A stretch of 64,000 nt of DNA, from positions 868,001 through 932,000 of the forward strand of contig JABVCE010000008.1 of the NCBI GenBank assembly GCA_014905635.1. Direction: 5' to 3'. The notes under the pieces were generated by a model. The model was not told the origin of the DNA. It saw only the letters and a list, made by a program, of their open reading frames with translations, and made no database searches. This DNA is from Scenedesmus sp. PABB004. Lineage: Eukaryota. This document shows, piece after piece, positions 14,092 to 64,000 of this stretch. Made by a program: the position numbers and the translations under genes. Numbering within the stretch: position 1 is the first letter of the stretch; every line of letters begins with the position of its first letter.

Positions 14092-14307
14092 ACCCCTTTA
14101 GAATGCCTGGGCCGCTTGGCTGAGGCGGAATGGTCCTCAACCGCAGTCATCTCGCCTCACGCGCCGATACAGCGTATCAGCACAGTGAGGCTTCGCACTC
14201 AAGCGGCCAGGCTGTCAATCAACATCAGGGGTGGAGAACTTGTCTGTGTTGAAAGACACAGATAAGGTGTACGAACTGTAGAACAGATCCTGTTCAAGTA
14301 CAGTCGT
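14092..14307 (-). ncRNA. U3: U3 snoRNA, copy 1
   Basis: Minus strand starts ACGACTGTACTTGAACAGGATCTGTTCTACAGTTCGTAC, matching the plant/algal U3 5' domain (GAC, A', A boxes). Terminal stem ACCCC/GGGGT, box B-like GAGTGCGA, box C-like GATGA; ~216 nt; low-GC island. Confidence 0.88.
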
Positions 14308-14404
14308 GAAAACGCATTCCGGCCGCGCGGCATTTGACGCACTGCGCGCCGCCGCCGCGCGGGGGACCAGCAGCGCTGGCAGCGCCCACAGCGCGCGGGC
14401 AGCA

Positions 14405-16750: not shown

Positions 16751-16753
16751 TGA
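16658..16753 (+). pseudogene. 5' remnant of the GIY-YIG-like gene (parent at 35818)
   Basis: MASRIPSMAQQRGALG-ARAAPRRQQRPSSAV* matches the parent start with an internal deletion and ends in a stop. Confidence 0.8.
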
Positions 16754-16794
16754 GCGCGGCGCCCCCGCCCGCCCGCCCGCGTCCTAGCCAAAAG

Positions 16795-17016
16795 ACCCCT
16801 TAAGAACGCCTGTGCGCGCCAGCTGGGGCGGAAATGCTCCCCAACATACACATCAAGCTCTACGCGTCCGCACAGCGTGCGGCCACAGCAGAGCGTAAGC
16901 TTCGCACTCAAGCGGCCAGGCTGTAAATCAACATCTGGGGTGGAGAACTTGTCTGTGTTGAAAGACACAGATAAGGTGTACGAACTGTAGAACAGATCCT
17001 GTTCAAGTACAGTCGT
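16795..17016 (-). ncRNA. U3: U3 snoRNA, copy 2
   Basis: 5' ~118 nt almost identical to copy 1; same ACCCC/GGGGT closing stem; followed by CTTTT (possible Pol III terminator); ~222 nt. Confidence 0.88.
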
Positions 17017-17450
17017 GAAAACATTTTCCGGCCGCGGCGCATGTGAAGCACTGCTGTGTCTGCGCGGTGCTTGCGACGTTTTGTCTGTTCCACGTCGGTG
17101 TTATGTACCGGTCCAGCTTCCATTTTCTGGAAGACCGTGATCGGCGAAGCCCAGCTGCTTGCTCTGTCGCCTGCCGTCTGCGATGCGCTCGCAGGGCGGG
17201 TGGCGGGGCCACCGGGCTGCGCTCCTGCGGCGCGGAAGTGGCAGCAGCGGACCGCACCGCCGCCGGCGGCTTGGCTGCTCGCCTGCGGTCCCTGCTCGGT
17301 GCTGCGCGTGCGTGTGAGTTGCGCGTCTCTAGAGCGACGCGGCGCAACTGTGGTAGCGGTTCACTCGGCCGCGCGCCGGCGCCGCGCCGCGCCCAGCCGC
17401 CGGCGCCGCGGTGTCGCCGCAGCCGCCTTCCCAGCAGCTGGGCCCAGCGA

Positions 17451-17455
17451 TTACA
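17451..17455 (-). promoter_or_regulatory. TGTAA polyadenylation signal of the helicase gene
   Basis: ttaca on the plus strand ~75 bp beyond the stop at 17527; TGTAA is the chlorophyte poly(A) signal. Confidence 0.6.
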
Positions 17456-17526
17456 GAGCAGAGAGCGCGCCCGCCCGATCGCCGGGCCATTGCGCCACCG
17501 CAGCGCGCCCGACCGCCGCCGCCGGC

Positions 17527-29254: not shown

Positions 29255-30776
29255 ATGGACGCGGCTGTGGCGGCGGCGACCGCGGCGCCGGCGTCGGGGC
29301 ACGCCGGCGCGCTCCTGGCGACGTGCGCGCTGATGTTCGCCGCGGCGTGGGGCTGCGGCGCGCTGCCGTCGTGGGCGCCGCTGCCGGAGGGGCGCCTCGC
29401 CGCGGTCAACGCGCTCGGCGCGGGCCTGCTGGTCGGCAGCGGCCTCGGGATCATCCTGCCAGAGGGCTTTGAGGCGGCGGCGGGCGCCGCGCTGCCCGAG
29501 TGGGCGGCGGCGGCGGCGCTGTGCGCGGGGTTCTGGGCGATGCTGGCGCTCGACGGCGCGGCGCACCTGCTCCCGGCGCCCCCCGCTGCCGCCGCGTCCG
29601 CCGCTGGCCCGGGCGGCGACGCAAGCGGCGGCTGGGCGAGCGACGACGGGCACGGCGACGAGGAGACCGCGGTGCTGCTCGCAGACCTGCACCCGCACCA
29701 CCAGCAGCTCCGCGGCGGCGGCGACGGCGGCGGCGGCCGGCCGGGCACGCCCAGGGCTGCGCCGGGCACGCCGCGCGGCGGCGCGCTGCCGCGCCCCGGC
29801 TCGGCGGCGGGCGCGGCGCTCGCGGCGGCCGGCGACGCGGCGCGCAAGGCCGCCGGCGCCGGCGCGTGCAGCAGCAGCAACCTGCGGCTGCAGTCGCAGC
29901 CGCAGCTCGAGGGCGGCGGCCCTGCGGCGCCGGGGCCCGGCCGGCAGTGCGCCGCCGAGGCCGGCAGCGGCGGCGGCGGCGGGCTGCTGCAGCTCGGCGG
30001 TTGGCTGCGCGAGCCCAGCCAGCAGGCGCTGCTGGGCCTGTGCGTGCACGCAGGTGCGTTGGGGGACAGGCGTGGGGGCCCGTCCGGATGCTGCACCTGG
30101 CCAGGCTTGCCGCGCCCGGCGCCCGGCGCACGCCCAACTGCGGCGCACCCGGCCGCCGCCGCCCCGGCAGCCTCAGACGGGCTGGCTGTCGGCGCGGCCA
30201 GCCTGGCTGCGGACCCTGCAGTCAGCGTCGGCGTGGCGGCGGCCATGATTGTCCACAAAGGGCCCGTGGCTGTGGGCCTCGTGAGCTGCCTGCGCGCCGC
30301 GCGCTGGACGCCGGCGGCGGTGCACAGGGGTGCGCGCGCGCGCGCGTGCTGTCGGCGCCCGCCGCGCGCCGCGCCGCGCCGCGCCGCGCCGCGCCGCGCA
30401 GCGACCAGCCTCGCACGCCGCGGCGCGCCGCCCCGCAGGCCTGCTGCTGTTCTCGGCGGCCTCGCCTGCGGCGGCGCTGCTGACGTTTTGGCTGCTGTCA
30501 GCGTTGCCGAGCCTCGCGGGCGGCGGCGGGGGCAGCGCGCTTGCCGTGCTGTTTTCAGGTGGCACTGTACTTTACGCTGCCACCATGCACATCCTGCCCA
30601 GCGCGCTGGGCGGCGGCACGCTGGGCGGCTCGGCACAGCACCAGTGCGGCCGCGGGGCGGGCGGCGGCAAGGCCGGCGGCGACGGGGCCGGCGCGCGCAA
30701 GGCCGCGCTGGGCGCGGTGTCGCTGGGCATGGCGGCGCCGGTGCTGCTGTCGGCGCTGTTTCAGCACGAGCATTGA
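29255..30776 (+). CDS. ZIP-family zinc transporter (ZIP9-like), multi-exon
   Basis: LGAGLLVGSGLGIILPEG, LGLCVHA/ASDGLAVGA, AMIVHKGPVAVGL, LFSGGTVLYAATMHILP. Confidence 0.88.
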
Positions 30777-30829
30777 ACGATCGGCTGCACAGCCATCTTG
30801 GTTGCAACCCTGCCGCCAACTGACCTGCG

Positions 30830-33800
30830 CACTCGCGCGCGCACCACCGCCCTCCGGCCGCGCGCGCCGTCAGCCACCGACCGCGTGCTGCAGCAGCTCG
30901 CGCAGCACCTGCTGGATGCGCGGCGTGTTGCGGCGCGCCACCCAGTTGCGCAGCTTGAGGTAGTTGAGCTCAAAGCGCGCCAGCCGGCCGCCCGGGTTGG
31001 CGCCGGCCGCCGCCTGCCCGGCCAGTCTGCGCAGGGCCTCCATGGCCGCCTCCAGCTGCTCCAGCTGCTCGTCCGGCGCGGCCAGGCAGTCCATGTCCAC
31101 GAGGCCCCACAGCGCCGACTCCGCCGCCTCCAGCCCGGCATACGCTGGCAGCGCAAAGCCAGGCGGCAGCGGGCAGTCATCGCGCGCTGCCTGCGGGCCG
31201 CTGCAGCCGGGGGCGCCACGGCTGCAGGTGCGCTGGCCTGGGCCGCCGGCGAGCCCGCGGGCTGGGGCTGCGTCGCCGGGCTGCTCTGGTGGTGGGCGCC
31301 CGTGACCAGGGCGGCCGCCGCGCCGCCACTGCGCGCGACTGCTGGTGCTGGCCGCTGCACTGCCGCCGGCTGCTTGGCCACGGCCAGCGCCGCTGCAGCG
31401 GCTGCGGGCGCCACCTCAGCAGGCACGTGCCCGGCGACGATGGCCCGCAGCAGCTGGATGGTCGCGCGGCGCGCCTCGCCAGCCGGCGCGCCGTGCTGCA
31501 GCGTGGCCAGCGCCTGCCGCCAGTCGCTGGTGCCCAGGTCCTGCAGCGTGGGCAGGGCGGCCGGTCAGTCAGCGCTCGGCTGCTCAGCAGCAGGCCAGGC
31601 TGCCCGCTGCGTCGGCGCCATATAAGGAGCCGCACCTTGGCCAGAAAGCGCTCGCCCCCCGCCAGCACAGGCGGCGGCAGCTGCGGCTGGACGCGGCCCG
31701 CCGCCGCAAGGTGCAGCGTGATGTCGGCGCCGTTGCTAGACATGGCCGTCACCTTGTGGCCCAGGTACGCCGCCAGCCCGGCGGCGTGCAGGCCGGACAG
31801 GTGGTACCGCATCTGACCGCGCGGCCGCCGCGTGCTCGGCTGCGCGTGCCTTGGCGAAATCGTCACCATCGGCGCGACGCCGCCTGCGGGGCAGGGGTTG
31901 CGAGCAGGGTTCGCGGTGAGCGCCTGCCTGCACGGCACACGCTGCCCGCTCGCCGCACCTGGCAGCGCCACCGGCGCGCCGTCCACCTCCAGCCGCATCG
32001 GCAGCTCCAGCGGCTGCACCAGCTCGCCAAACTGGGAGTGCACCAGCGCGCCACGCACCGGCAGACCACTGACAAGGGTGGTCATGGTCAGCATCTGGCT
32101 CTGTGGCATGCAGAGGCAGCAACAGCTCGTCAGCGGCAGCGCTCCTGGCCAGCAGCAGGCAGCCAGCAGCAGGCAGCCAGCAGCAGGCAGCCAGCAGCAG
32201 GCAGCCAGCACCCAGCCGCTCACCGTGGCCACGGACGTCACCGCGCGGGACGGCGCGCCGCCCGCACCGCCACTGAGCCCCACGCCGGCCGGCTCCATCT
32301 CGCCGTCTTCCGCCTCGTCACTGCCGCCCTCGTCGTCGCGGCCGCCCTCACTGGCGGCGCAGCGGGGCAGGAATGAAGCTTGCAGTGCTGAGGCTGAGGC
32401 TGAGGCTGGTTGGCCGGCGACCGCGGCGCGCCACCGCCCCGCTGCCCGCGCCGCGCGGCGCCGCGCCGCCGTCGCTGGGTTGTCCCTTGGCTCGCTGGCC
32501 ATGCTGGCACTCTGCTTGTCCTCTGTCGCCCAGCGCCGCGGCTTGCGCTGCCGCTGCGACCGCCGCAGCAGCCCCTCCTCAGGCGCCGCCTCGCTGTCCC
32601 GCTGCTGCGCCACCACAGGCGGCTCTGCCTCGTCGTCGTCTGGCTCCTCGCTGCCGCCCTCGTCGTCGCGGCCGCCATCACTGGCGCTGGCACTCTGCTC
32701 GTCCCCTGTCGCCCAGCGCCGCGGCTTGCGCTGCCGCTGCGACCGCCGCAGCAGCCCCTCCTCAGGCACCGCCTCGCTGTCCCGCTGCTGAGCCACCACA
32801 GGCGGCGGCGGCGGCGGCTCTGCCACTGAGCCCGGCAGGGGCGGCGGCCGGCAGCGGTCCACGTCCGCCTGGCTGCAGCTGCCCCGGCGCACGAGCTTGC
32901 TGAGCGCCCTCATCTGCCGGTCGAGCGTGGCCAGCTGCCCCGCCGTGAACGCGCCGCCGCCCCGGCCACCGCCGTGCAGCGCCGCTGACTCGAGCGGCTG
33001 CGCTGTGGCTGCGCCGGCTGCCGCGGCAGCAGCCGCCGCGGGCGAAGCGCCGACGTGCCAGCCGCCTGTGCGCGGCGCGGCGAGGCTGCGGCTGCCGCTG
33101 TCGCTGCTCGCCCTGCGCAGCGCCGGGGCCAGCGGCGGCGTGCTCAGCGCTGGCGGCAGGCGCGGCTGCGCCCACAGTCCCTGCTGCTCCAGCACGCCTT
33201 CTTCAGACGTGCCTTCAGCCGCAGCAGCGAGCGCCGCTGCCGCGAGGCCGCCGTCGAGCCTGTCGCCCGCTGCGCTGCTGCCGGCGGCGGCGCGCCAGCG
33301 CTTGGCGGCCGGGCTGCCGCCGCTGCCGGTGGTGTCGCAGCCAGCCTCGCCGCCATGCGCCAGCGGGCGCTTGGCCGGCGCCGGGCCGCCCGACGGCACG
33401 CAGGTCAGGCCGCCGCCAGCCTCCACTGTGCGCGCGTCGCCGCCACTGAGCTGCTGCGGCGCCGGCGACTCGTCCTGCATCACCGCCACGCTCGCCAGCG
33501 CGGCCTCCCAGGCGCCCTGCGCCCACGTGGCCGGCGCGCCGCCCCGCTCCTGCGCCGCGCTGCCGTCGGCAGCCGTCCCGGCGCCGGGGGCCGCCAGGCG
33601 CTGGCGGAGGAGAGCTGGGAAGTCCGGAGCCTCGGCCATGGCGTCGCTGGGCCGGGCCTCGGCGCGCCGACGAGCCGGCGGGATGCTGGCGCCCGCCGCT
33701 GCTGCTGCGGCGCCGGGCGCCCCGCCGGCGGGGCTGGGCGCCCTGGATCGGGCCCGAGAGCGCTCGTCTGGGCGCGCTCTGACGCGTGGGGTGGTGCGCG

Positions 33801-34372
33801 GGCTGGTGCGTCGGCGGCTGCGGGCAGCGCGGCGTGCGGGGCGCAGCAGCAGCGGCGGCCGCTCGCGCGCGGCGCCGGCCGGCCGCCCGTCAGCGCGGCT
33901 GTGGTGAGGACCGGCCTGGGACTGCACACGCCACGCCGGGGCACACCGAAAAGGGTCCGGCACGCGGGCGCGAGCGCGGGCGGGGTTCAGGGGCGCGGCG
34001 ACGGGCCAACAGCGCGGCACCAAGCAGGTGCCCAACACCTGCCGCAGCGTGCCCAGCGACACACCAAGCAACGGCAAAACGACACAGGACCCGCACGCAA
34101 CTGCGCCGCGCGCGCGAGCACCCACCACCACCGACCGCTCCGGCCGCGCGCGCCGTCAGCCGCCGCCCGCGTGCTGCAGCAGCTCGCGCAGCACCTGGAC
34201 GCGCGGCGTGCTGCGGCGCGCGCCACCCAGTTGCGCAGCTTGCGGTAGTTGAGCTCAAAGCGCGCCAGCCAGCCGCCCGGGTCGGCGCCGGCCGCCGCCT
34301 GCCCGGCCAGCCCGCGCAGGGCCTCCATGGCCGCCTCCAGCTGCTCCTGCTGCTCGTCCGGCGCGGCCAGGC
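30830..34372 (-). repeat. Orphan family copy A (upstream 3'-end remnant, spacer, gene 33639-30870)
   Basis: Inverted homologue of 57778-61614. The C-terminal coding segment (LAAPDEQ..NTPRIQQVLRELLQHA) occurs at both ends (~30870-31090 and ~34155-34372). Confidence 0.9.
30870..33639 (-). pseudogene. Orphan QLQ-like/B3-like gene, copy A; lacks the second B3-like repeat, C-terminus apparently frameshifted
   Basis: Starts MAEAPDFPALLRQRL. Relative to copy B it has a ~630-bp deletion at ~31540, a frame break near 31195, and an internal 180-bp duplication (PPVVAQQRDSEA..RRSQRQRKPRRWAT twice). Confidence 0.6.
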
Positions 34373-34433
34373 ACTCCGCGCGCGCCAGGCGCCGCAGCGC
34401 CGGCGCTGCCGCTCCTCGCTCGCTCGCCCGCCG

Positions 34434-35482
34434 CTAGCTGTTGCGGGCGTAGTCCTCCAGGATCTTGACCAGGTCGCTCACGCACATGCTGGGCATCACG
34501 TCAAACAGCGACACCTGTGACGCCGCGCGCGCGCGGCGCCAGGCGCGGCGGCAGCCGCACGGGTGGGCGCGGCCCGAGGAGGTGCACGGCCCCACGCGCC
34601 CGCGCCGCTGGCAGCCAGCCGGCCGAGCTCCGCCCAGCGGGCGCACCCGCGTCTTGCCGGCGCCGAGCTCCACCGGAATCTTCTTGAGCACTGCTGCCAC
34701 GTCGCTCTCGCGCAGCCCGCCGCGCCCGCCCGCGGCGGCCTGCGCGGCTGGCGCGGCGGCGCCGCGGTGGGCGCGGCGAGCGCGGCGCCGCCCGGCGCGC
34801 GCGGCCTGCACGCTCGCGCGCGCGCACACACCTCGGGCCCCAGCTGCGTCGCGAGCGCCTGGCTCATCTTGAGCCCCGGCACCGCCGACATGTCCCGCAG
34901 GAACAGGTGCCAGCCGGCGATGTCGACATACACGTCCCGCCCTGCCGGGGCACACGCGCGCGCGCGCCGAGCGAGCGGCAGGTCAGCCGGGCGGGTGGGC
35001 GCGCATGCCTGCCGCAGCAGCTGCTGCTGCGGGCGGCGGCGCCGCCGGCGCACCGATCTTGAATGCCAGCTCCTCGTAGGGGCTCTTGTTCTTGCTGCCC
35101 TCGCTCGCGACCAGCTTGGCCAGGTCCAGCCAGCCCTCCACGACTGCGGGCAGCAGCGGCGCCGCGCTCAGCGAGGCCGGCGCCCGCACGGCGCCCGGTC
35201 CGCGCTGCGCGGCCGGCCGCGCACCGTCCTTGCCGATGCCCCGAGCCAGCGGCGCCCGTCGCAGGCGGTGCACCGGCAGCGGCTGCACGCGCGGCAGGAC
35301 AGCGCCTGCGCGGGCGGCAAGCAGCGGCGTGCGGCGGGCGCGCTTGGTGCCGTCGGTCCTCGAGCCCACCTGAGCGCGCTCGCTGAGCGCGCTGCGTGCG
35401 CCCGGCCGCCCCAACACGCACTGCTGGGCTGCCTGGCGCCCGCCCTGGCGCGGCAGGCGCCGCTCTGCGCCGCCGCCGCCAT
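34434..35482 (-). CDS. DUF3181-family protein, copy 2 (likely the parental locus); start uncertain
   Basis: Same exons as 15274-16322 (GKTR instead of GKTL); head-to-head with the intact GIY-YIG-like gene. Confidence 0.75.
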
Positions 35483-35817
35483 CGCCGCCGTCCGTCCCGA
35501 TCAGCAGCAGTCCCGGCGTGGCTGGCGCGTGGGGATGCTTCGCGGCTGGAGGGTGGATGACGGCGATACCGCTGGCGACGGCAGGTGGAGCGAGTGTGCG
35601 ACGCCAGCTGCGCGGCGCGGCAAAAAGCGCCGAACCGCAGGCTGGGTTGAAGGGCCCCGCGCGCCACGGTGATCCTGCCACTGCTGCCGCGCGCTCTCGC
35701 ATTGCACCGCGCATTGGACGCCGCCGCTGCGACCGCGACGCCGGCCGCCGCCGCCGCCGGAGGAGATCCGCTTTTGCTCAACGAAACAGTCGGAGGCGCC
35801 TCCCATTGACGCGCGAC

Positions 35818-37831
35818 ATGGCTTCACGCATACCGAGCATGGCGCAGCAGCAGCGCGGGGCCCTCGGGCCGCGCGCGCCGGCAGGCATGTCGGCCGGCAC
35901 GCGCTGCGGCGCGCTGAGCCGCGTGCGGGTCGCGGCGTCTGCCGCACCGATGAGGTCCAGTGCACCCTGGTCCGCCGGCGTGCTCGCCTGGAGCAGCGCC
36001 GCCGCGCATGTGCCGGCGCGGGCGGCGCCGCGCCGGCAGCAGCGGCCGAGCCGTGCGGTCGCGGCGGGCGCCGCGGCGGAGCGGCTCAACGCCGACGCCG
36101 AGCCCGTGGCCAGCTCGGCGGGCCCCAAGCTGTCGGACCTGCCGATCCAGGCGATCGTCAACCAGCAGGCGCGCGGGCGGCCCGGCGCCGCCGCCGCGCG
36201 CGGGGCTCCGCCGCCGCCCGCGGCGCGCCCACGCCGCCACCGCCGCCGCCTCGCCGCCCGCAGGGCTACGTCGCGCCGGCGCTCGCGCCCGGGGGCCAGG
36301 CGTGGGTGTTTGCTGTGTACGACGAGGCCCAGAAGCTCCAGTTCATCGGCTTCAGCAAGGACCTCACCACCAGCCTGCGCACCGTGCTGGGGCGCCGCCC
36401 CGACAAAGCCTGGTTCTACAAGTGAGCCCTGCCGCTGACACCCAGCCGCCAGCACCAGCAGCAGCAGCGGCAGCAGCAGCAGCAGGGCGGAGGCGGGGCC
36501 GGGTGGCAGCTCGCGCCCGCCCGCGCCGCCGGCCCACGCGCGCCCCGCCGCGCCCCGCCGCGCCGCGCAGGGCGGCGCAGCTCGACAGCGTGGACCAGGA
36601 GGCGATGCTGGCGCTGCGGCAGGCGTGGTTTGACGAGTGCGGCGCGCCGCCGCCGGGCAACAAGCTGGCGCTGGAGCGCAAGGCCTGGCAGGTGGGGCGG
36701 CGCCACGCGCGCGGGCCGGGGCCCGCCCGCACCGGCGGGCCGCGCCGCCGCGCCGCGCCGCGTGCGCGTGAGCGCGGCGCCGCCGCCCGCCCGCCCGCGC
36801 GCAGTCGGCGGTCGACGCGGGCGCCATCAGCGCGCGCGCCAAGCCCGCCGCCGGCGCGGAGAAGGCGCGGGAGCTGCAGGCCGCGCTGCGCGCGCGCGGC
36901 TGCGTCGAGGAGTTTGTGCCAAACCCCGAGCTGCTCGCGGACGGCCAGGTGCGGCGCGGCGCCACCGCCGCGCACGGCCAGGGCGCCCGCCGCGCGGCGC
37001 GCGCGGCGCGCGGCGCGCGCGCCCTCCCCTCTGCGGGCCGAGCTCACGGCCACCCCCTGCTCCTCCTCCCGTTCCCCGATCCCCCTTCCGCCCCCCTCCG
37101 CCCGCGACAGGTCGACTTCCTGCCGCCGACCGGCGGCGGCGAGGCGGCCGCGGCGGCGGGCGCGGCGGCTGCGGCGGCAGCCGCCGAGTCGGGCGCGGCG
37201 CGGCCGGTGCGGTCGGCGTCGGCAGTCGTGGACGGGCAGGCCAAGACGTTTGACGTCGAGTACTGCACCAAGTTCCAGACCAAGGGCGGCTACCTGTTTG
37301 ACGTCAAGCTCAGCTTCGACCACATGGATACCAAGCACAGGCACGCGCCGCGCCCGACCGCAGCTCTTCGAGACGTGCGCGCCGCCGCGGGGCGCGCCCG
37401 CACGCGCCGCCCGCCTGACGCACCCGCCGCCGCCGCCGTGCCCCGCGCGCCGCCTTTGCAGGGTCATCGTGGGGCGGCAGTACTACGAGCCGTACGGCCT
37501 GCCGCCCGAGGCGCCTGTCGAGGCGGCGCTGTCGCTGCTGCTGGGGCTGAAGCTGCCGCGGCACAGCGAGGGCATGCTGGGCAGCGCGGAGTTCCCGGTC
37601 AACTATTTCACGATCAGCGAGGCGGAGCAGTGGTTCGAGGACGACTTTGCCGCCGCGTTCCTGCACGTCACCGGCGCGACGCTCGTGGACGGCACGGGCG
37701 AGCTGTGGCGAATGAACAAGGTCAACGTGTATGGCGGCCGGCTCGAATTTGAGGCCGCCGCCTCGATGGAGGACCCCGCGGCGCTCGGCGCGGCGCTCGT
37801 GGGCCGCGGCCTCGGCGCGATCGGCGGCTGA
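35818..37831 (+). CDS. Putative plastid protein with an N-terminal GIY-YIG-like domain (AtGRXS16-N type) and an unrecognised C-terminal domain
   Basis: Transit-like start; AWVFAVYDEAQKLQFIGFSKDLTTSLRTVLGRRPDKAWFYK; ALRQAWFDECGAPPPGN; C-terminus FDVKLSFDHMDTKHRVIVGRQYY..FPVNYFTISE. Confidence 0.65.
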
Positions 37832-53054: not shown

Positions 53055-56000
53055 TCAGTAGCCGAGCGGCGCGCCGTCCTTGCGCGCGTCGCTCGCGGCC
53101 AGCAGCACGCCGCGCGCCGCGCCGCCGCCGGCCGCGTGGTCGCCGCCGCGCAGCTGCAGCCCCTCGGCCGCCGCGGCGCCGGCGTCATAGCTCACAAAGA
53201 TGGCCTGCGCGACGCCGAGCGCAAACGCGGCCGGCGTCGTGACCTGCCCGCGCGCGCGCAGCGCCGACACCGCGCCCGCCGGCAGCTGGTGATCGGTGCG
53301 CCCCCTGCGGCGCGGCGCGGCGCGGTGTGGGCGGCCGCCCGGCGGGCACACGCGGGAACAGGCAGGCACGCGGGCGCGCCGGCCCCGCTGCGCCCGCCCC
53401 CCGGGGCCTCACCAGCTGACGTTCTCGAAGAACGCGTCCGCCCGCGGCAGCAGCTGGTCGTGCACGCGCGCGCCCGACACCGCGGCGCCGACGTCGGCGC
53501 CCTCGAGCAGCAGCCGCGCGAGCGTGGTGAGCGTCGCGCTGACGATGAGCGGCCCGCCGCTCGCGCCCGCGGTCGCCACGAGGCGCCCGCTGCGCGCGTG
53601 CGCCACGACGAGCGGGCTCATCGCCGACAGCGGGCGGCGCCCCGGGTAGATGAAGTTGGCCTCGCTGGCGTGCGGTGTGACGGTGCTCGACCTGCGCCAC
53701 GCGGGCGTGTGTGAGTGTGTGCGTGTGGGCGCGTGTGTGTCGGCGCCGCCCGCCGCGCCCCGCCGCCGCCGCCGCCGCCGCCGCAGCCGCGCTGTCCCCT
53801 GCCGTGAGCTCGGGCGCTCACGTGTTGGGGAAGGCAAAGTCGTCCATGGTGTTGCCGAGCAGGATGCCGGTCGAGGGAGACACGACCGCCGAGCCAAAGG
53901 GCCCGTTGACCGACGTCGTGACCGCCACGGCGTTGCGCTCCGCGTCGACGATGCTGAAGTGGGTCGTCCCGCGCTCCTCGGGTGGCGCGTCGCCGCGCGG
54001 GTTCCACCGCCCGCCGTAGGCCTCGTCCGGCAGCACGCCGTCGTCGCGCGTCGCGGCGCGCAGCGACGCAGCGAAGCGGGCGTCCAGCAGGTCGGCCGCC
54101 GCGGCGGCGATGCGGTCGGCGTGCGGGAATGGCGCGGCCGGCGTGCCGGGGTCGCCGAGCGCCGTGCGCACGGCAAAGCCGTGCTTCATCGCCTCGACCT
54201 GCGCGCAGCGGCGGCGCGGCGTGTGGGCCGCCAGCGGCAGGCAGGGCAGCGGCGGGCGCGGCAGCGGCGAGCGGCGCGGGCGGCGCGCCGCACCAGCCGG
54301 TGCAGGCCCAGCCCGCCGTCGGCGGGGTGCGGTGCGGGGCCGAAGGCCGCGCGCGGCTGCGCCCCGCCCGGCGCGTCACTGCTGGCGTTGCTGGCGCCCG
54401 CCGTGAGCGCCGTGTTGCCATAGCCGGCCAGGAACTGCAGGGCGAACGCGACCACCGCCGCCGACGACGGCGGCGGCGGCAGCACCAGCTCCAGCTCGCC
54501 GACCGTCACGCGCAGCGGCTCGCGCACCGCGGGCTTGGCGGCCTGCAGGTCGGCCGCGCTGACGATGCCGCCGGCGGCCGCGATCTCGGCCGCCATCGCG
54601 GCGGCGACGTCGGGGCGGTTGAGGTAGGCCGGCCCCTCGGCAGCGACTGCGCGGCGCGGCGCGGCGCGGCGCATTGAGCGGGCTGCCGACGCGGCGGCCG
54701 GCGACGCGGCGGGCGGGGCGCGCGGTGAGCGCCCGCTCACTCTTGTCGAGCGTGTCGGCGAGGCGCGGGCGCTTGCAGCAGAGCTCGCCGACGCGCGGCA
54801 GCCGCCAGCCGCCGCCGGGCGTGGGCACCATGAAAGCTTCGCGCAGGCCGGGGCTCGCCTGCGCACGCCGCGCGGCGCGGCGCGGCGTGGGCGGGGAGCG
54901 CGGGGCTGCGTGGGCCGCGCGGGCGACGCCGGGCGGCGGCCGCGGCGGGCGCCGAGGCCCGGCGCGCGTGCGGCGCGCGCGCGGCGCGCACCGCGATGCG
55001 CGCGGCATTTCGGGGGCCGCTCATCACGTAGACCAGGTACGGGTGCGCGGCCATGCCCTGCCGCGCGAGCTCTGCCGCGGGGCGCACGAGCCGCGCCCAC
55101 GGCAGGCGGCCGTGCGCCGCGTGCAGCGCGCCGAGCCCGGGCAGCTCGCCCGGCACCGCCACTGCGAGGCCGCCGTCGAGGGAGGCGTTGGCGGGGAGGC
55201 CTGGCGGCGGCGCGGGAGGCACGGCGGGCGGCGGCGGCGCGCGTCGGCGGCGCACGGCGGCGCCCGGCGGCGGCCGCACGCGGCCGCGCGCTGTCCCACG
55301 CGCGGACCCGCAAACATGTCGGCCGTCGCCGCGGCGGGCGCGGTCTCTCGCGCGTCCCAGAAAGCCGCGCTGCCGTTGGCGAGGCGCAGCGTGATGAACG
55401 CGCCGCCGCCGAGGCCGCTGCTGCTGGGGTTGACGACGCCCAGGCACAGCGCGACCGCGACCGCCGCGTCGGCGGCGTGCCCGCCCTCGGCCAGCACGTC
55501 GCGCCCGACCTGGCTGCAGCGGCTGTTGTCCGCCGCGACCATGCCCTCCGCCGCCGCGGCCCGGCGGCTGAAGTTGCGGAAGTCAACCTGCGGGCAGCGG
55601 CGGCGCGGCGCGGCGTGGGCTGCCGCGCCCGGCCCCTCCGACACTAGCATGGCCCCACCCTCGCCCGCGCTGCGCGCTGCACGCTGCGGGGCCGCACCTC
55701 GGGCAGCGGCAGGCGGTTCACGACCTCGCACCGCAGCCGGGGGCCGACGCAGGGCACGAAGCCCTCCCCGCCGCCGCCGTCCGGCGGCTCGGCCGCGAGC
55801 TGCGCAAAGCCCTGCGTCCCGCCGCCGGCGCCGACGTTCCACACCGCGCCGCCGCCGTCCTTGTCCAGCGCGTGCGGCGCCGCGGCGGCGGCGCCCTCGC
55901 CGCGCGGCGGCGCCTGCTCCCGCTGCACCGCGGCGGGCCGCGCCGCCAGCAGCACCGCGAGCAGCACGGCCGCCGCGATCATGGCGCCGCCGACTGCGGG

Positions 56001-56254
56001 CCGGCGGGAGCGCACGGCGGGCGGTCGGGCGGGGGACCGCCGCGGCGGGCCGCGACGCGGCGCGCGGCGCACGCACCCGCGGCGACCAGGCGGTGGCGGC
56101 GCCGCCGCGCGGCGCGCTCCTCCGCGTGCCGCGCCTCCGCCTCGTAGTCGCGGCTGCCCTTGTGCCCCCCGCCGCCCGCATGGAGCAGGCTCTCCACGTC
56201 CAGCGGCACGTACGTGAGCGGCGGGCCCCGTCCGCGGTCCTCAGGCGGCGCCAT
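53055..56254 (-). CDS. GGT: Gamma-glutamyltranspeptidase (glutathione hydrolase), multi-exon
   Basis: GMVAADNSRCSQVG..GGHAADAAVAVALCLGVVNPSSSGLGGG, DARETAP, AVPGELPG, GTTHFSIVD..TTSVNGPFGS, NTMDDF, PGRRPLSAMSP, GASGG, ASDARKDG. Confidence 0.95.
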
Positions 56255-56734
56255 CGCCCAGCCGCGGCGTCGCGGGCGGACGTCAGCGCATCAGCAGGGC
56301 CGCAGCTGCAGGCGCCGCAGCAGCCGCTCGGGTGGCGCAGCGTGCGGCGCGCGGGCAGCAGCGGCAGCAGCGGCAGCGGCGCTCGTCGCACTGCGCGGTT
56401 ACGGCAGCGCGCGGTGGACTGGATCAGTGGGCCCAGCGACGCGCGCCGCGGCGGCCATGCACGCTGCGCAGCGGCGGCGCAGCGGCGCGAGGGTCTGAGA
56501 CCTGCACGGCGCCTGCGGGCTTGCGGAGCCTCTCGCGCCCTCCAACGCGGCGGCCCTCTCTTCGCCCCTGCTGATCGCGCCGTCGGCCGCCGCTCGTCTG
56601 CTCGCGCAGCCGCCGCCCGCCGCACGACCACCGCCCGCGACCGCCGCCGGACGCCCCAGCGCCCTGCCCGGGCCGCGCGCAGGGCCGTGGCAAGAACGCG
56701 CCAGCGGCCGCGGCGGCGCGCGCCAGCAGCAGCG

Positions 56735-57555
56735 ATGGCAGCGGCGGCAGCGGCGCGCGGCGGCAGCGCCGCCCGCAACGCAGCCCTCGCGGTCGGCGGG
56801 CTCAGCGTGGCAGGCTACGCCGCCTACTACACCAGCCAGGCGAGCAGGGAGAGGGAGGGACAGGGCGCCGCGCGGCGATCGCGGCGGCGGGGCGGCAGCG
56901 CGGGCGGCAGCGAGCGGCGGCGCCGGCGCGTGGCGGCTGCTTGGCGGCTTGGCGGCGCCCGGGCTCACCGCGCGCCGCCGCCGCGGCCCGCAGAGCGGCG
57001 CGGTCAAGGCGCTCGAGCGCGAGGCGGACGCGCTGCAGACCAAGGCGTTTGTCGCGCGGGGGCGCTTCAAGCGCGCGGAGAGCGACATCGCCGAGTCGGA
57101 GGCGCTGATCGCCGCGCTCGCGCAGCAGAGCGAGCTCGGCGCGCGCGACGCGGCCGACCTGGAGGCGCGGCTCGAGGCCGCGCGGCGCTCGGTCGCGCAG
57201 CTCGAGGCGGCGGCGGAGCAGAAGAGCGCAGACCTGCAGCGCATGCGCGACGACATGGCGCAGGCGCGGCGGGGCGTGGGGCGCGACAAGGCGGCGGCGG
57301 CGGCGGCGGCGCAGCAGCGGCCGGCCCCCGCGCCGGCCGCGGCCGGCGCCGACGCGCCGCGCCGCGCGGCGGCGCCCGCCCCCGGCGCCGCAGGCGGCGC
57401 AGACGCGCGACGCGGCGCGCGGCGACATCGAGCGCTTCCGGTCAGAGGCGGCGATCGCGGAGCGCGCGCTCGCGGCGCTCGGCGCGCAGGTCGCAGAGGC
57501 GCGGAAGCAGCTCAACCCGCTGAACCACCCCGCGCTGCGCGAGTTCTACGGCCGC

Positions 57556-57586
<31 letters not shown>

Positions 57587-57591
57587 AATGA
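56735..57591 (+). CDS. Small N-anchored coiled-coil protein, unknown function (3 exons)
   Basis: Hydrophobic ALAVGGLSVAGYAAYY followed by heptad-rich KALEREADALQTK..ARKQLNPLNHPALREFY; stop at 57589-57591; codon usage like neighbouring genes. Confidence 0.6.
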
Positions 57592-57777
57592 TCGCCGCGC
57601 GCGGGGTTCTCTGCGCAGAGCACGCGCGACGCCGGCGGCGGTTGCTCCAGGAGCGAGAGCGCGGGGCGGGCACCAGGCAGCCGCGCGCGCGCCGTGTGAA
57701 CGCCGCCGCCGACCGCCGCCGCGTTCGAGCCCTTTCGCTGCGCCGCCGTTGACCCAACGCGGGCTGCACCCTCGCCA

Positions 57778-60700
57778 GGTGGCGCGCCGCAACACGCCGC
57801 GCATCCAGCAGGTGCTGCGCGAGCTGCTGCAGCACGCGGGCGGCGGCTGACGGCGAGCGCGCGGCCGGAGGGCGGTGGTGGGTGCTCGCGCGCGCGCGGC
57901 GCAGTTGCGTGCGGGTCCTGTGTCGTTTTGCCGTTGCTTGCTGTGTCGCTGGGCACGCTGCGGCAGGTGTTGGGAACCTGGTTGGCGCCGCTGGGTGCCC
58001 GTCGCCGCGCCCCTGAACCCCGCCCGCGCTCGCGCCCACGTGGGGCACCCTTATCGGTGTGCCCCGGCGTCGCGTGGTGCAGTCACAGGCCGGTCCACAC
58101 CGCACCGCGCTGACGGGCGGCCAGCCGGGGCCCCACGCGAGCCGCTGCTGCTCCCTGCACGCCGCGCTGCCCGCAGCCGCCCACGCAGCCGCCCACGCGC
58201 CAGCCCACGCGTCAGACTGGACCCAGACGCGCGCTCTCGGGCTCGATCCAGGGCGCCCAGCCCCGCCGCCGGGCGCCCGGCGCCGCAGCAGCAGCGGCGG
58301 GCGCAGCATCCCGGCGGCTCGTCGGCGCGCCGAGACCCGCCCCAGCGACGCCATGGCCGAGGCTCCGGACTTCCCAGCTCTCCTCCATCAGCGCCTGGCG
58401 GCCCCCGGAGCCGGGACGGCTGCCGACGACAGCGCGGCGCAGGAGCGGGGCGGCACGCCGGCGGCGTGGGCGCAGGGCACCCTGGGAGGCCGCGCTGGCG
58501 AGCGCGGCGATGCTGGAGGACGAGCCGCCGGCGCTTCAGCAGCTCAGCGGCGGCGACACGCGCACAGCAGGGGCTGGCGGCGGCCTGACCTGCGTGCCGT
58601 CGGGCGGCCCGGCGCCGGCCAAGCGCCCGCTGGCGCATGGCGGCGAGGCTGGCTGCAACAGCACCGACAGCGGCGGCAGCCCGGCCGCCAAGCGCTGGCG
58701 CGCCACCGCCGGCAGCAGCGCAGCGGGCGACAGCCTCGACGGCGGCCTCGCGGCAGCGGCAGGCGCTTTGGCTGCGCCTGCAGCTGAAGGCACGTCCGCA
58801 GACGTGCTGGAGCAGCAGGGACTGTGGGCGCAGCCGCGGCTGCCGCCAGCGCTGAGCACGCCGCCGCTGGCCCCGGCGCTGCGCAGGGCGAGCAGCGACA
58901 GCGGCAGCCGCAGCCTCGCCGCGCCGCGCACAGGCGGCTGGCACGTCGGCGCTTCGCCCGCGGCGGCTGCTGCCGCGGCAGCCGGCGCTGTCACAGCGCA
59001 GCCGCTCGACTCAGCGCTGAACGGCGGTGGCGGGGGCGGCGGCGCGTTCACGGCGGGGCAGCTGGCCACGCTCGAGCCGGTCGAGCTCGACCGGCAGACG
59101 AGGGCGCTCAGCAAGCTCGTGCGCCGGGGCAGCTGCAGCCAGACGGACGTGGACCGCTGCCGGCCGCCGCCCCTGCCGGGCTCAGTGGCAGCGCCGCCGC
59201 CGCCGCCGCCTGTGGTGGCGCAGCAGCGGGACAGCAAGGCGGTGCCTGAAGAGGGGCTGCTGCGGCGGTCGCAGCGGCTGCAGCGCAAGCCGCGGCACTG
59301 GGCGACAGAGGATGAGCAGAGTGCCGGCACCGGTGAGGGCGGCAGCGACGACGAGGGCAACAGCGAGGAGCCGGACGACGGCGAGGTGGTGCCTGCTGGC
59401 GTGGGGCGCAGCGGCGGTGCGGGCGGCGCGCCGTCCCGCGCTGTGACGTCCGTGGCCACGGTGAGCGGCTGCGTGCTGGCTGCCTGCCGCTGGCTGCGTG
59501 CTGCTGGCCAGGAACGCTGCTGCTGACGAGCTGCCGCTGCCTCTGCATTCCACAGAGCCAGATGCTGACCACTGGCACCATGCATACTGGTCTGACAGTG
59601 CGTGACGCGCTGGTGCACTCCCAGTTTGGCCTGCTGGTGCAGCCGCTGGAGCTGCTGCTCCGGCTGGTGGTGGACGGTGCGCCGGTGGCGCCGCCAGGTG
59701 CGGATCACGGCCGCATGCACAGAGTGAGCGGCCGGGTCTTGTCCGGCTCCGCAGCCGCGCGCGCTGCTCACTGCACCGCTTGCTCTGCTTCACAGCCGCC
59801 GGCCGCACGGTGCACCTGGTGCCCGCCACCAGCATAAACTGGTACCGGGCTGCAAAATATCACCTGCGCGGCCTGCGCGCCGCCGGGCTGGACGCATACC
59901 TGGGCCACAAAGTGACGGCCATGTCCAGCCACGGCGCCGACATCACGCTGCACCTGGCGGCGGCGGGCCGCGTCCAGCCGCAGCTGCCGCCGCCTGTGCT
60001 GGCGGGGGGCGAGCGCTTTCTGGCCAAGGTGCGGCTCCTTATGTGGCGCAGACGCGGCGGGCAGCCTCGCCTGCTGCTGAGCAGCCAAGCCCTGACTGGC
60101 CAGCCGCCCTGCCTGCGCTGCAGGACCTGGTGCTGTCTGACAGCTCTCTGGACAGCACTGGCGTCTTTCTCCACAGGGGCTTCGTGGAGGCGCTGTTTGG
60201 CGTGCTCAGGCAGCCGCTGGAGCTGCCGCTGCGGCTGTGCGTGGGCGGCGTGCCCACGGAGCTGCCGGCGCTCAGTGAGCGGCGGCCGCGCTGCGCAGGG
60301 CACGCGCCGGCAGCTGCGCCCGCGCCTCTCATTGGTGCCATCTGCCGCCCCGCACGCAGGAAGCCGCGGCCAGCGGGCCAGCACCACGGTGCGCCTTGCG
60401 CCGGCCAGCCCCGGCAAGCTGGATGACCCGAGCTACCGGCGCGAATACCGCCTGCGCGGCCTGGCCGCCGCCGGGCTGCATGCGTTCAAGGGCCGCCGCC
60501 TGACCAGCGTCGCCAGCGATGGCGCCAGCATCACGCTGCACGTGGAGGGCGAGCCTGGCCGTGGTGCGGACAGCGGCGGCGCGGGCAGCAACGGCACCAG
60601 CGAGGTGGAGGGTGAGGGCGGCAGCAGCCACGCGGAGGGCGACGCCAGCGGTGGCACGCGGTGCGGCGCCAAGGCCCCTGCGCAGCCGGCGCCACCAGCC

Positions 60701-61614
60701 ACGCTGGGCCGCTGCGGCGGGGCGGCCGCAGCAGCAGCCACCAGCAGCAAGGAGGGTGACGGCGCCAGCGACTGGCGGCAGGCGCTGGCCACCCTGCAGC
60801 GTGGCGCGGCGCCTGGCGAGGCGCGCGGCGCGACCATCCAGCTGCTGCAGGCCATCGTCGCCGGGCATGTGCCTGCTGAGGTGGCGCCCGCAGCCGCTGC
60901 TGCATCGGCGCTGGCCGTGGCCCAGCAGCCGGCGGCAGTGCAGCTGCAGCGGCCAGCACCAGCAGGCACGCGCGGTGGCGCGGCGGCCGCCCTGGCCACG
61001 GGCGCCCACCACCAGTGCAGCCCGGCGACGCAGCCCCAGCCCGCGGGCTCGCCGGCGGCCCAGGCCAGCGCACCCGCAGCAGCCGTGGCGCCCCCGGCTG
61101 CAGCGGTTGCGGCGGCAGCGTGCGCGGGCGGGGCGCAGCAGGCAGCGCACGCCGACTGCCCGCTGCCGCCAGGCTTTGCGCTGCCAGCGTATGCCGGGCT
61201 GGAGGCGGCGGAGTCGGCGCTGTGGGGCCTCGTGGACATGGACTGCCTGGCCGCGCCGGACGAGCAGCTGGAGCAGCTGGAGGCGGCCATGGAGGCCCTG
61301 CGCGGACTGGCCGGGCAGGCGGCCGACCCGGGCGGCCGGCTGGCGCGCTTTGAGCTCAACTACCTCAAGCTGCGCAACTGGGTGGCGCACCGCAACACGC
61401 CGCGCATCCAGCAGGTGTTGCGCGAGCTGCTGCAGCACGCGGTCGGTGGCTGACGGCGCGCGCGTGCGGAGGGCGGTGGTGGCGCTCGCGCGCGCGGCGC
61501 AGTTGCTTGCGGCCGGCGTTTGTCGCATTGCCGTTGCTTACTGTGTCGCTGGGCATGCTGCTGCGGCAGTTGGGAACCACTCGGCGGCCCTTGTTGGCCC
61601 GTCGCCGCGCCCCT
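57778..61614 (+). repeat. Orphan family copy B, bounded by diverged ~235-bp direct repeats (57778-58014 and 61381-61614)
   Basis: ggtggcgc..aacacgccgcgcatccagcaggtg..ggctgacggc..gcagttgc..ttgggaacc..gtcgccgcgcccct occurs at both ends, offset ~3600. Confidence 0.9.
58353..61453 (+). CDS. Orphan protein with a QLQ-like motif, two B3-like repeats and a conserved helical C-terminus; 5 exons; +1 frameshift near 58480 (possible pseudogene, or start at 58510)
   Basis: GT-AG introns at ~59461-59555, 59698-59795, 60029-60123 and 60275-60359; repeated unit ..FG.L.QPLEL.LRL.V.G.P / Y.LRGL.AAGL.A..G...T...S.GA.ITLH; TGTAA at 61693. Confidence 0.6.
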
Positions 61615-61732
61615 AGGTTTTCCCACGGCGCGCGCGCACCCAGCGCGCGCAGCCCGAGGGCGCATTCGCCCTTGCCCCGTCCCGAGCCCGCGTGTAACGA
61701 AAACGGTTGCATCGCGCTCCTTGCAGCCACCG

Positions 61733-64000
61733 TCAGCGCGGCCGCGGCTCGTGGCGCTCCGCCGCGGCCACCGCCAGGCTGCGGATGCGGTTCACCGCCG
61801 CGGCAATCTCAAACCGCCGCGGCCGCGCGAGGTTGCCGAGCAGCAGGTGCGGCGCCAGCACGTCGAGGCCCTGCGCGGCGGCGGTCGCTCGAGCTGGTCG
61901 CGGCGGGAGCGCGGCTCGCCTCGTCGCGCTGCGCGCGCGCGCGCACGCCGGCCGCCGCCGCCCGGGGCGCCCCGCGCGGGCGCCGTCGCCGGCGCGCAGT
62001 CAGTGCGACCCCCCTCTCCCGCGCACCTGCTCGTCGATCGCGGCGTCGAGCTCGTCGAGCCACTGCAGCAGCGTGCGCCCGCCGCCGCCCCGCGGCCCCG
62101 CGCCCTGGGGCCCCAGCCGGGCCTGCAGCCACTTGAGCGCGTCCGCGACGGCCCGCGTCTGCGAGCGGTCCACGAGCTGCTCCGCCGCGGCCAGCGGGAT
62201 GTCCTGGTCGCCAAACTGCCAGGCGCGGGGCGGCGGCGCCGCGTCGAGCGCGGCGGCGGCAGCGGCGGCGGGCGCGGGCGCGGCGCGCGGCGGCGGCGCG
62301 CGGCGCGTGGCGCGCGGCCGCGGGCGCGCCTGGATGTGGTGCAGGCCGCGCACGTGCGTCTTGACGCCCCGCCCGGCATCGCCGCCGCCACCGTGCACGC
62401 GCAGCGGCACGCGCGGCGTCACCCACACGCCGCCGCCCGGCGCCGGCGGCGGCGGCGCGACGCCGGCGCCCGCGAGCGTGGCCGCGTGCGCCGCGGCGAT
62501 GGCGTGCGCGGCGGCCGTCTGGTCGCTCGGGGCGTAGCAGTGCATGACAATCACCTGAACAATATGCGGGGGGGCACTGAGCGTTTCAATTGACTTGACT
62601 GATTGACTGACTTGTGTGATTTGGGGCGGGGCGCGTGCCGCGGGCGCGGCGCTCGCGCGTGAATCACTGGCGCCGCCGCGGCCCGCTGGCTGCGCCCGCG
62701 CTGCTCGGCCGTGCTCTCCCGCGGCGGCGCAGGCGCACCGTGTCGGCGAGCTCGAAGTAGTCGCCGCTGCCGCCCATGACCAACACGGTCGACACGCCCG
62801 CGCCGCGCAGCTGCCTGCGCGGAGGCGCGCGGCGCGACGCGTGCGCGCGGCGCCGGCGGCCGGCGCCCGCACGCACCCCGCGCCCGCACGCACCCCGCGC
62901 CCCGCTCCGCGCGCCACGCACGCGCCCCCTCGCCCGCGTGGTTGAGTGCGCACCTGATGCGCGCGCTGAAGGGCGTGATCGGCTCGCGGCTCGGCGGCAC
63001 GAGCGCGGCCATGCGGGGGTCACGCACCATGAGGTTGGTCGCGCACGTGTCCTCGTCCAGCAGCAGCGCCGACGCGCCCAGCTCCACCGCCTCCTGCACG
63101 GCGGCGGCGGCGGTTGCGCGAGCGGCGGCGGTTGCGCGAGCGGGGGCGGCGCCGCGAGCAGGGGCGGCGGCGGGGGAGGGGAACGCCCTTGGGACGCTCG
63201 GGCCACGCGCAGGGCTGCGCGCGGGGCGGCGCGCGGCGCGTGCCTGCATGTTGGTGGCCTGCGATGTCGAGCCGCTCGCGTCGTCGGAGCGGAACGCGGC
63301 CGTGCTGGCGCCGCCCGGGAGGTTGTTGATGAAGGGACTGTGTGTGTGATTGTGTGTGTGTGTTGTGTGTGTGGATGGGTGGGAGGGGGCGTGTCGAGGG
63401 AGGGAGGGGCAGGGGCAGGGGGCAGGGAGGGCCAGGCCGCGCCGGCCGGCGCGCGCCCTGCGGCGGCCGGCGCGGCTTGCCCACCTGATGTCGACGCCCT
63501 CGACGCGCCGCCCGTCCTCCGCCGCTACCTTGACCGCGCCCGGCACCGCCACCACGAGCTCGCGCCCGTCGCCGGGGACCTGCGTGCGGCGCGCGCGCGC
63601 GCGCGTAGCGCCGGCGTCGGGCGCCGGGCGGCAGCCCCTCGCCGCCACCAGGCACGCACGGGCCCGCCCGCCACGTCTGCGCCCCCACCACACACGCACG
63701 CAACACGCCCACCTTGTTGTACACGCCCGCCTCGAGCGCCTGCAGCAGCGTGGACTTGCCGTGGAAGCCGCCGCCCGCGATGAGCGTGACGCCGCGCCGC
63801 ACGCCCAGCCCCCGCACGCGCCCCCGGTGCGGCAGGTCCACCTCGACACACAGGCTCGGCGGCGCCGCAAACGGCACCAGCCCCGGGCCGGGCGGCATCG
63901 GCAGGTCGCTCGCGCCGCTGCGGCGCGGGCGCGGGCGGGCGGGCGCGGGGCTCGGGCGGGGCGCGCGCGCGCGGCCAGCCTGCCGGGCGCGCAGCGGCAC
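61733..64000 (-). CDS. Predicted ABC-class ATPase (COG3044/PF09818 type), multi-exon, 5' end outside window
   Basis: GVTLIAGGGFHGKSTLLQALEAGVYNKVPGDGRE, AEDGRRVEGVDISPFINNLP, DASGSTSQA, LLLDEDTCATNLMVRD, EPITPF, VMGGSGDYFELAD, PRRFEIAAAVNRIR. Confidence 0.9.

Follow-up and report, generated by a model that had tools for sequence, protein, structure and literature searches.

Three local copies of an intron-bearing algal gene, each preceded by a relic of its own 3' end, are probably segmental duplicates rather than a mobile element

The 64-kb stretch of Scenedesmus sp. PABB004 analyzed here (contig JABVCE010000008.1, positions 868,001 to 932,000; hereafter the window) contains three copies of a gene family, and every copy opens with a 5'-cut piece of the family's own C-terminal coding sequence, complete with stop codon and 3' untranslated region (3'UTR), which we term the tail. 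The copies lie at 57772-61614 on the plus strand (copy B), at 34412-30817 on the minus strand (copy A) and, truncated, at 15252-14447 on the minus strand (copy C), all inside 47 kb. A first-pass annotation of this sequence had proposed either a non-autonomous mobile unit, Penelope-like or rolling-circle in origin, or the remnant of a tandem array copied as a block. The second proposal fits everything that was tested: A, B and C are most probably DNA-level segmental duplicates, a relic of tandem duplication that was re-copied as a block and later altered through decay and gene conversion. The evidence does not support a mobile element. In the best reading of the data, the family gene would be an ordinary intron-bearing nuclear gene for a lineage-restricted protein with one or two predicted B3-like domains and a C-terminal helical domain.

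The evidence comes from the window, protein databases and published papers. The window is 75–85% GC throughout and includes intron-bearing genes. Stop-to-stop open reading frames (ORFs) of at least 100 aa number 430 in the 64 kb and are spread over all six frames; at this base composition, therefore, ORF length is no evidence of coding. Table 1 and the accompanying text of PMC12571836 give the genome as 39.8 Mb with 78.5% GC, which agrees with the window, and with 1.31% repeats, the lowest value among the Sphaeropleales compared there. We count this low repeat content in favor of duplication (PMC12571836).

The three copies, each with the family's own 3' end upstream, were confirmed using BLASTN of 57000-62500 against the window and MAFFT alignments, with coordinates that differ by 10–40 nt from those first proposed. 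Copy B resembles copy A in three blocks: 57782-59429 matches A 34221-32583 (90.0% over 1675 nt), 59858-60130 matches A 31806-31534 (92.3%) and 60761-61505 matches A 31534-30817 (88.4%). The truncated copy C aligns over 15067-14447 with B 57778-58424 (88.2%). Within B, the 3' end at 61381-61614 is repeated upstream at 57778-58014 (85.0% over 240 nt, E 1e-69), and the longer stretch 61205-61614 recurs in the tails of C (15252-14841, 86.2%) and A (34412-33989, 83.7%). Similarly, the 3' end of A (30817-31127) matches its own tail at 34098-34412 (87.1%). A tblastn search with five B exons found no fourth copy in the window.

All three copies share one layout, in which the tail is followed by a spacer and then by the gene. 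The joint between tail and spacer is identical in A, B and C, where CGCCGCGCCCCT is followed directly by GAACCCC, and an ATG lies roughly 340 nt beyond it at 58353 (B), 33639 (A) and 14515 (C). In copy B, the tail (57772-58014) holds the last ~27 codons of the family, a TGA stop at 57848-57850 and ~165 nt of 3'UTR. The B spacer (58015-58352), presumably promoter and 5'UTR, starts at this common CCCCT/GAACCCC junction and leads into the gene (58353-61453), which would encode a pair of B3-like repeats, each spanning two exons, and a four-helix domain at the C terminus; its 3'UTR (61454-61614) is drawn up to the point where likeness to the upstream tails ends. Copy A has a tail of ~410 nt of the family 3' end (33989-34412, minus strand) that begins ~20 nt past the stop codon of a DUF3181 gene (34436-34434), and small indels shortly beyond 34218 disrupt its reading frame. 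The rest of A (30817-33988) consists of the spacer (33988-33640) and a gene running from the ATG at 33639 to a stop at 30872-30870. Copy C (14447-15252, minus strand) retains a tail (15252-14841) whose ORF is intact for 72 codons to the stop at 14997-14995, a spacer (14840-14516) and 69 nt of coding sequence from the ATG onward, cut off at 14447; it also carries the most private indels of the three.

The tails resemble one another more than they resemble the downstream ends of the genes. Mutual likeness of the three tails in the distal UTR is 88–92%, against 73–77% to the 3' end of B. Over the 131 nt common to all five ends, two columns split tails from 3' ends, and no column pairs a tail with the 3' end of its own copy. 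Because the tails group together in this way, the two-ended layout was inherited and not regenerated at each copying, in line with the first-pass suggestion that it predates the spread of the copies. The diagnostic residues that it had relied on also hold, namely LQHAGGG* in all three upstream pieces against LQHAVGG* at both 3' ends, and NYRK in the upstream pieces of A and C against NYLK at both 3' ends. There is no sign that the tail has been kept as coding sequence: compared with the 3' end of A, its coding part shows seven replacement changes and one silent change in 219 nt.

The outer boundaries of the copies, in contrast to the common inner junction, are ragged. The tail of B is ~170 nt shorter than those of A and C, starting at the equivalent of 61375 instead of 61205. 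Likeness at the 3' end of A stops at the equivalent of 61505, which is 53 nt past the A stop codon and ~109 nt short of the point reached by the tails and by B (61614), and the coding part of C is reduced to its 69 nt. All four outer ends of the copies differ, so neither A nor B as now seen can be the parent of the other.

The duplicated DNA also extends beyond the family. The likeness between the A and C loci (33568-35880 and 14447-16717; 95.4% over 2318 columns) continues 1.47 kb past the tail and takes in a complete neighboring DUF3181 gene. The copy at the C locus (15274-16717, minus strand) has its ATG at 16322, its stop at 15276-15274 and ~400 nt of upstream DNA; the copy at the A locus (34434-35880, minus strand) runs from an ATG at 35482 to the stop at 34436-34434, again with upstream DNA. 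Since DUF3181 is an unrelated host gene that was co-duplicated in A and C, it counts toward segmental duplication. Introns kept, unrelated flanking sequence carried along and breakpoints specific to each copy are together the marks of segmental duplication at the DNA level, and the copies here show all of them.

Identity between the A and C loci is patchy. A tract of 1.66 kb, 15058-16717, is 99.5% identical to A locus 34218-35880, whereas adjoining sequence is ~84% identical. Differences number 9 of 1660 positions over the tract and 3 of 1625 within 15058-16682, against ~101 of 610 over 14447-15057, a part in which A, B and C are roughly equidistant. Our reading is that tail, spacer and gene would have been duplicated three ways at an early date, and that recent homogenization of the DUF3181 part of A and C would have followed. 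The near-identity of the DUF3181 pair may have arisen by gene conversion, by recent re-copying or through a polishing artefact. The tract ends in an alternating GC stretch beside a cluster of indels private to A and within ~15 nt of the left breakpoint of B, and a common break-prone site would account for all three. A simple chimera of A and B was considered for copy C and ruled out, as all three copies carry many changes of their own over the stretch from the tail to the coding start. As a separate observation, the window thus holds two near-identical, complete DUF3181 genes 19 kb apart.

From these data we infer an order of events, a tandem origin for the tail and a break-prone site. A tandem duplication of the gene unit (spacer, gene and 3'UTR, equivalent to B 58015-61614) would first have created the CCCCT/GAACCCC junction. 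The upstream copy would then have been lost save for its last ~410 nt, leaving the tail ~20 nt behind the DUF3181 stop codon. The block of tail, spacer and gene would next have been re-copied within the same ~50 kb with different breakpoints, such that the left edge of B falls within the tail, the end of A 53 nt past its stop and that of C 69 nt into the coding sequence. Gene conversion or recent re-copying may subsequently have homogenized the DUF3181 part of A and C, in a tract starting at the (GC)n-rich spot that would also be the left breakpoint of B and the site of the A indel cluster. Finally, the copies would now be decaying or diverging under weak constraint. Tandem duplication recurs at other scales in the family gene, in its two B3-like repeats and in a 121-nt duplication within A.

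Several points weigh against this account. The search for copies covered the window and annotated proteins, and unannotated copies elsewhere are possible; the protein searches, moreover, scored just those 8000 candidates that share most words. An identical inner junction and a 5'-shortened B tail would also be expected from a partial tandem of the Penelope type. The A/C tract end at 15058 lies within ~15 nt of the left edge of B (15067-15073 in C coordinates), a coincidence that we read as a possible common break-prone site. The tandem stage is not preserved, and direct upstream copying of the last 410 nt would look the same. The introns are predicted, and the transcription of the copies is presumed.

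The exon structure of the family was placed from GT-AG sites and reading frames. Copy B would comprise five exons (58510-59460, 59556-59697, 59796-60028, 60124-60274 and 60360-61453) whose translation from the second ATG is 856 aa long; relative to A, a 1-nt indel near 58479, inside a run of C, puts the earlier ATG (58353) out of frame. Copy A would have four (33639-32224, 32100-31959, 31883-31636 and 31540-30870), a model that agrees at three junctions with NCBI protein P0006 (hypothetical protein HT031_003177, 1036 aa). The intron retention noted earlier fits the splice sites, the reading frames and the public model. A module of two exons is doubled in B, where 59624-59683 resembles 60195-60254 (80%) and 59856-59960 resembles 60444-60548 (74%). 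Copy A is without the second B3-like repeat, owing to an in-frame gap of 630 nt that corresponds to B 60136-60765, and carries an internal insertion of ~270 nt that includes the 121-nt duplication.

Both full copies may be defective. In addition to the 1-nt indel of B, a 28-nt deletion in A shifts the frame ahead of the C-terminal domain, and P0006 splices this stretch out as an intron. Specifically, a C>T change in A (31305-31190, minus strand) creates the GT donor of the additional intron by which the NCBI model skips the deletion; the equivalent stretch of B (60995-61140) has GC at that site and is read straight through. Over 614 codons, A and B differ by 0.073 synonymous changes per synonymous site (dS) and 0.056 replacement changes per replacement site (dN), and the ratio of 0.76 indicates weak constraint on the gene. 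The pentamer TGTAA was uninformative as a poly(A) signal, with four occurrences in 64 kb over both strands, about as many as expected by chance.

Could part of this pattern be an artefact of assembly or polishing? Mis-mapped reads could produce the 1.66-kb near-identity of A and C, and errors in GC-rich sequence could produce the frame breaks; the identity does jump abruptly from ~84% to 99.5% at 15058, the 1-nt indel of B does lie in a run of C, and base composition is extreme throughout the window. However, gene conversion likewise yields a sharp boundary, and the copies differ by ~10% plus many indels over kilobases, which means that the copies themselves are real. We consider an artefact unlikely, though it survives better than the other alternatives.

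A somewhat less likely alternative is that the tail is a captured 3' exon of the DUF3181 gene, so that the chimeric product would finish with the greater part of the family's C-terminal helical domain. The intact ORF of 72 codons in the C tail would suit this idea, as would the 99.5% identity between A and C of DUF3181 together with the 5' stretch of the tail, and both NCBI models of these loci splice DUF3181 to the tail through a GT-AG intron. The same models, though, also run into the next gene (family gene A in one case, a dihydrouridine synthase (Dus) gene across a U3 small nucleolar RNA (snoRNA) gene in the other), which gives them the look of over-fusions. Furthermore, the DUF3181 frame reaches its own stop and its Pfam profile is matched to the last position (67-90 of 90), so the gene is complete without the tail. 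The tail of A is frame-shifted, and the seven replacement changes against one silent change give no sign of constraint.

The mobile-element readings were assessed with domain, RNA and junction searches. Pfam found no reverse transcriptase (RT), GIY-YIG, HUH or transposase domain in the five B exons. Among 174 stop-to-stop six-frame ORFs of at least 100 aa around the three copies (12–18, 29–37 and 54–64 kb), 16 matched Pfam at E<=0.001, every one to a host-type family (Dus, DUF3181, DSHCT, Zip, GGT, MRB1590_C or ABC_ATPase), and none of the 174 was an RT, integrase, transposase, gag/pol, GIY-YIG, HUH or Rep/helicase protein. The first-pass annotation had pointed to the spacer as a place for hammerhead ribozymes; neither hammerheads nor other ribozymes were found in Rfam scans at E<=1 in the three copy regions (57000-62500, 30000-36500 and 13000-17600). 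No target-site duplication (TSD) occurs at any junction and no microsatellite abuts the ends. The layout is also unlike that of a long terminal repeat (LTR) retrotransposon, with no column joining a tail to its own 3' end, no TSD and no gag/pol, and the inherited tails contradict any LTR-like or pseudo-LTR-like regeneration of an end at each insertion. A 5'-truncated copy directly upstream of a full one, the pseudo-LTR layout, is present in A, B and C and is not specific to Penelope-like elements (PLEs). With only local copies, ragged ends and none of these hallmarks found in the sequence and proteins searched, the proposed mobile unit is not supported.

A Penelope-type origin is accordingly very improbable. 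Under this explanation, the unit 58015-61614 would be a non-autonomous retroelement, or a host gene mobilized in trans by a Penelope-like element of the Chlamys type; an unspliced RNA starting in the tail would be copied, and its insertion in partial tandem would make the pseudo-LTR. It accounts for the order of a truncated copy and then a full one, for an inner junction that is the same in A, B and C, for a B tail that is shorter on its 5' side and for the apparent retention of introns. Against it, no copy has an RT or GIY-YIG domain in it or nearby, and no tail groups with the 3' end of its own copy. Target-primed copying preserves 3' ends, and that of A is truncated. The A/C likeness contains a whole unrelated gene, the copies found all lie within 47 kb with no further paralogue among the annotated proteins searched, and neither an end-abutting microsatellite nor a TSD is present. 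The 1.31% repeats reported for the genome also speak against such an element (PMC12571836). A broader version is equally hard to credit, in which a host B3-like gene was mobilized with its introns as a pseudo-LTR unit, either in trans by a Chlamys-type element or by rolling-circle copying from a circle, with CCCCT/GAACCCC as the fixed joint and the ragged ends as later deletions.

Least probable of all is rolling-circle or circular-DNA copying, in which a one-unit circle was replicated slightly beyond unit length and re-inserted, Helitron-like or via extrachromosomal circular DNA: A and B do slightly exceed one unit and the same 3'/5' joint occurs in all copies, but no Rep/helicase or HUH domain was found in or around them, the outer ends are ragged, a neighboring gene was co-duplicated, the tails are inherited rather than regenerated, and the unit starts with GAACC, not TC (the block itself starts with GGTGGCGC), so that the junction CCCCT/GAACC offers no CTRR end followed by a TC start.

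To characterize the encoded protein, the repeat module was modeled with AlphaFold 2 (AF2) from a five-row alignment of paralogous repeats, giving a mean predicted local distance difference test score (pLDDT) of 77.2 (69.7–77.2 across five models). The predicted fold is a seven-stranded pseudobarrel with two helices over ~110 aa, the arrangement that defines the B3 superfamily. In a VIA-align comparison with 48,161 chains, the top 11 rows were all B3 or B3-like domains (Z 7.6–4.2, root-mean-square deviation (rmsd) 3.0–4.3, 88–102 aligned residues), and the next row was unrelated (Z 3.6); a Z below 8 can mean merely a common arrangement, and the model rests on the five aligned rows. The matches were FUS3 (Z 7.6, rmsd 3.1, 92 aligned), At1g16640 (7.3), EcoRII-N (6.9 and 6.8), VRN1 (6.1), ARF1 (5.7), RAV1 (5.7), LlaJI.R1-N (5.6), BfiI (5.0 and 4.9) and the B3 domain of UbaLAI (4.2), of which we take EcoRII-N, BfiI-C and LlaJI-N to be members of the B3-like fold. 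Sequence identity to the matched B3 chains is 8–13%. The best Foldseek rows were likewise B3 domains, at E 0.07–1.4, and B3 also made up the nearest clusters in the Atlas (score 0.79), a result that serves only as a lead. It is likely, then, that the repeated internal domain adopts a B3-like pseudobarrel fold, with DNA binding as its predicted function.

The last ~90 residues are predicted to form a four-helix unit (best model pLDDT 82.9, the other four 58–65), for which a fold search gave no match at E<=0.001 and generic helical rows only. A search of 1.84 billion representative proteins yielded six weak relatives of this domain (33–41% identity, E 1e-9 to 5e-5), all from Logan assemblies and with the common pattern L..PD.QL.QL...RF..Y..L..W. 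The family is therefore lineage-restricted, yet not an orphan. The earlier description of it as such holds insofar as Pfam finds nothing in the family exons, and gives way with the predicted B3-like fold of the internal domain and the remote relatives of the C-terminal one. Pfam gave no match in the five B exons (PF02362 none at E<=1) and nothing in P0006 beyond a fused DUF3181 part (PF02362 none at E<=0.1), and a PDB sequence search with P0006 returned a single row at chance level (E 2.6). Given the B3 fold matches of the repeat and a C-terminal domain kept in six other proteins, the gene has the appearance of a host gene.

The window encodes two Scenedesmus sp. PABB004 proteins listed at NCBI, P0006 and P0013 ('dus', 628 aa), and both look like over-fused gene models. 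P0006, at the A locus (30870-35482, minus strand), fuses DUF3181, the tail and family gene A; P0013, at the C locus (~11000-16322, minus strand), fuses DUF3181, the tail and the dihydrouridine synthase gene across the U3 snoRNA gene. A tblastn search with P0006, unfiltered for low complexity, gave Ala/Gly/Arg-rich noise and was used only for two exact 22-aa matches to the start of DUF3181. Protein searches with the last exon and exon 1 of B scored the 8000 candidates sharing most words: the last exon matched only P0006 and P0013 among proteins of 199–2000 aa, and exon 1 had no match among proteins of 174–555 aa. Copy B (58353-61453) has no corresponding protein among the 199–2000 aa proteins searched, though it has the longest intact reading frame of the family, and seems to be unannotated or annotated very differently.

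Four metagenome runs (freshwater or other, Logan contigs) contain matches at small shares of 0.05–0.16, with no RNA run among those listed. Aligned to 54000-64000 at 85% likeness, they gave short contigs covering about 75–340 nt of the gene, some identical to B and others 5–15% different, and no listed piece crosses either outer end of the B block with at least 31 nt on each side. We draw no inference from these contigs on copy number, strains or expression. Among JGI metagenome contigs, 597 pattern matches to the last exon of B were obtained, none of which was confirmed by tblastn.

The surroundings of the copies hold further features. The C segment, and with it the duplicated block, is framed exactly by two tandem U3 snoRNA genes (Rfam Plant_U3) on the minus strand, at 14092-14307 (105.7 bits) and 16795-17016 (86.2 bits), which are 83% alike and lie 2.7 kb from each other. 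In the interval from the Dus gene to the first of these U3 genes there is an older, inverted and partial DUF3181-like remnant (13577-13799 and 13925-14036, plus strand), whose identity is 70% and 80% to the promoter region and to an exon of the DUF3181 copy at the C locus. Copy B is flanked by a coiled-coil gene and an ABC_ATPase gene. Next to copy A, a convergent ZIP-transporter gene ends with a stop at 30774-30776 (plus strand), 41 nt from the end of the A likeness at 30817. As this stop and that of A (30872-30870) are 94 nt apart, the 3'UTRs of the two genes must overlap.

As a discovery, the arrangement carries little weight. It does illustrate that segmental duplication of a tandem-duplication relic can produce a layout resembling the pseudo-LTRs of PLEs, which is worth bearing in mind when repeats are annotated in compact algal genomes of extremely high GC content. 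Possible by-products for annotators are the apparently over-fused public models and a protein without Pfam matches that has putative B3-like domains and a new conserved C-terminal helical domain.

Compared with known B3 domains, both those of plants (FUS3, VAL1, RAV1, ARF, VRN1) and the B3-like domains of restriction enzymes (EcoRII-N, BfiI-C, UbaLAI, NgoAVII), the family repeat shares the predicted fold over 88–102 residues at Z 7.6–4.2. It differs in having no match to Pfam PF02362, in its 8–13% identity to the matched chains and in being joined to a C-terminal four-helix domain that has neither a structural nor a Pfam match.

In the account of PLEs given in PMC8557442, pseudo-LTRs are 5'-truncated copies in partial tandem, non-autonomous derivatives are known, and introns are retained even in host genes copied in trans; Chlamys elements, which occur in green algae, are described there as lacking canonical hammerheads, as are Naiad elements (PMC8557442). 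The present family has the same 5'-truncated copy directly before a full copy and apparently retained introns, and hammerheads were not found in it, as in Chlamys and Naiad (PMC8557442). Because the layout resembles PLE pseudo-LTRs, the earlier idea of a mobile unit was reasonable. Unlike PLEs, however, the family copies have no RT or GIY-YIG domain, and no spread beyond the 47 kb was detected in the window and annotated proteins searched; the 3' end of A is not fixed, the neighboring host gene was co-duplicated, the tails were inherited rather than regenerated, and the predicted product is a host-type B3-like protein.

The closest parallel is with ordinary paralogue clusters, that is, segmental or tandem duplicates with gene conversion. 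These likewise consist of DNA-level copies with introns and neighbors carried along, with copy-specific breakpoints, physical clustering, patchy identity (here 99.5% beside ~84%), frame breaks and weak constraint (dN/dS 0.76). What sets the present family apart is the relic 3' end that a lost upstream copy has left in every member, making each look longer than one unit. This relic-tail layout is a historical accident of the first deletion and of the later breakpoints.

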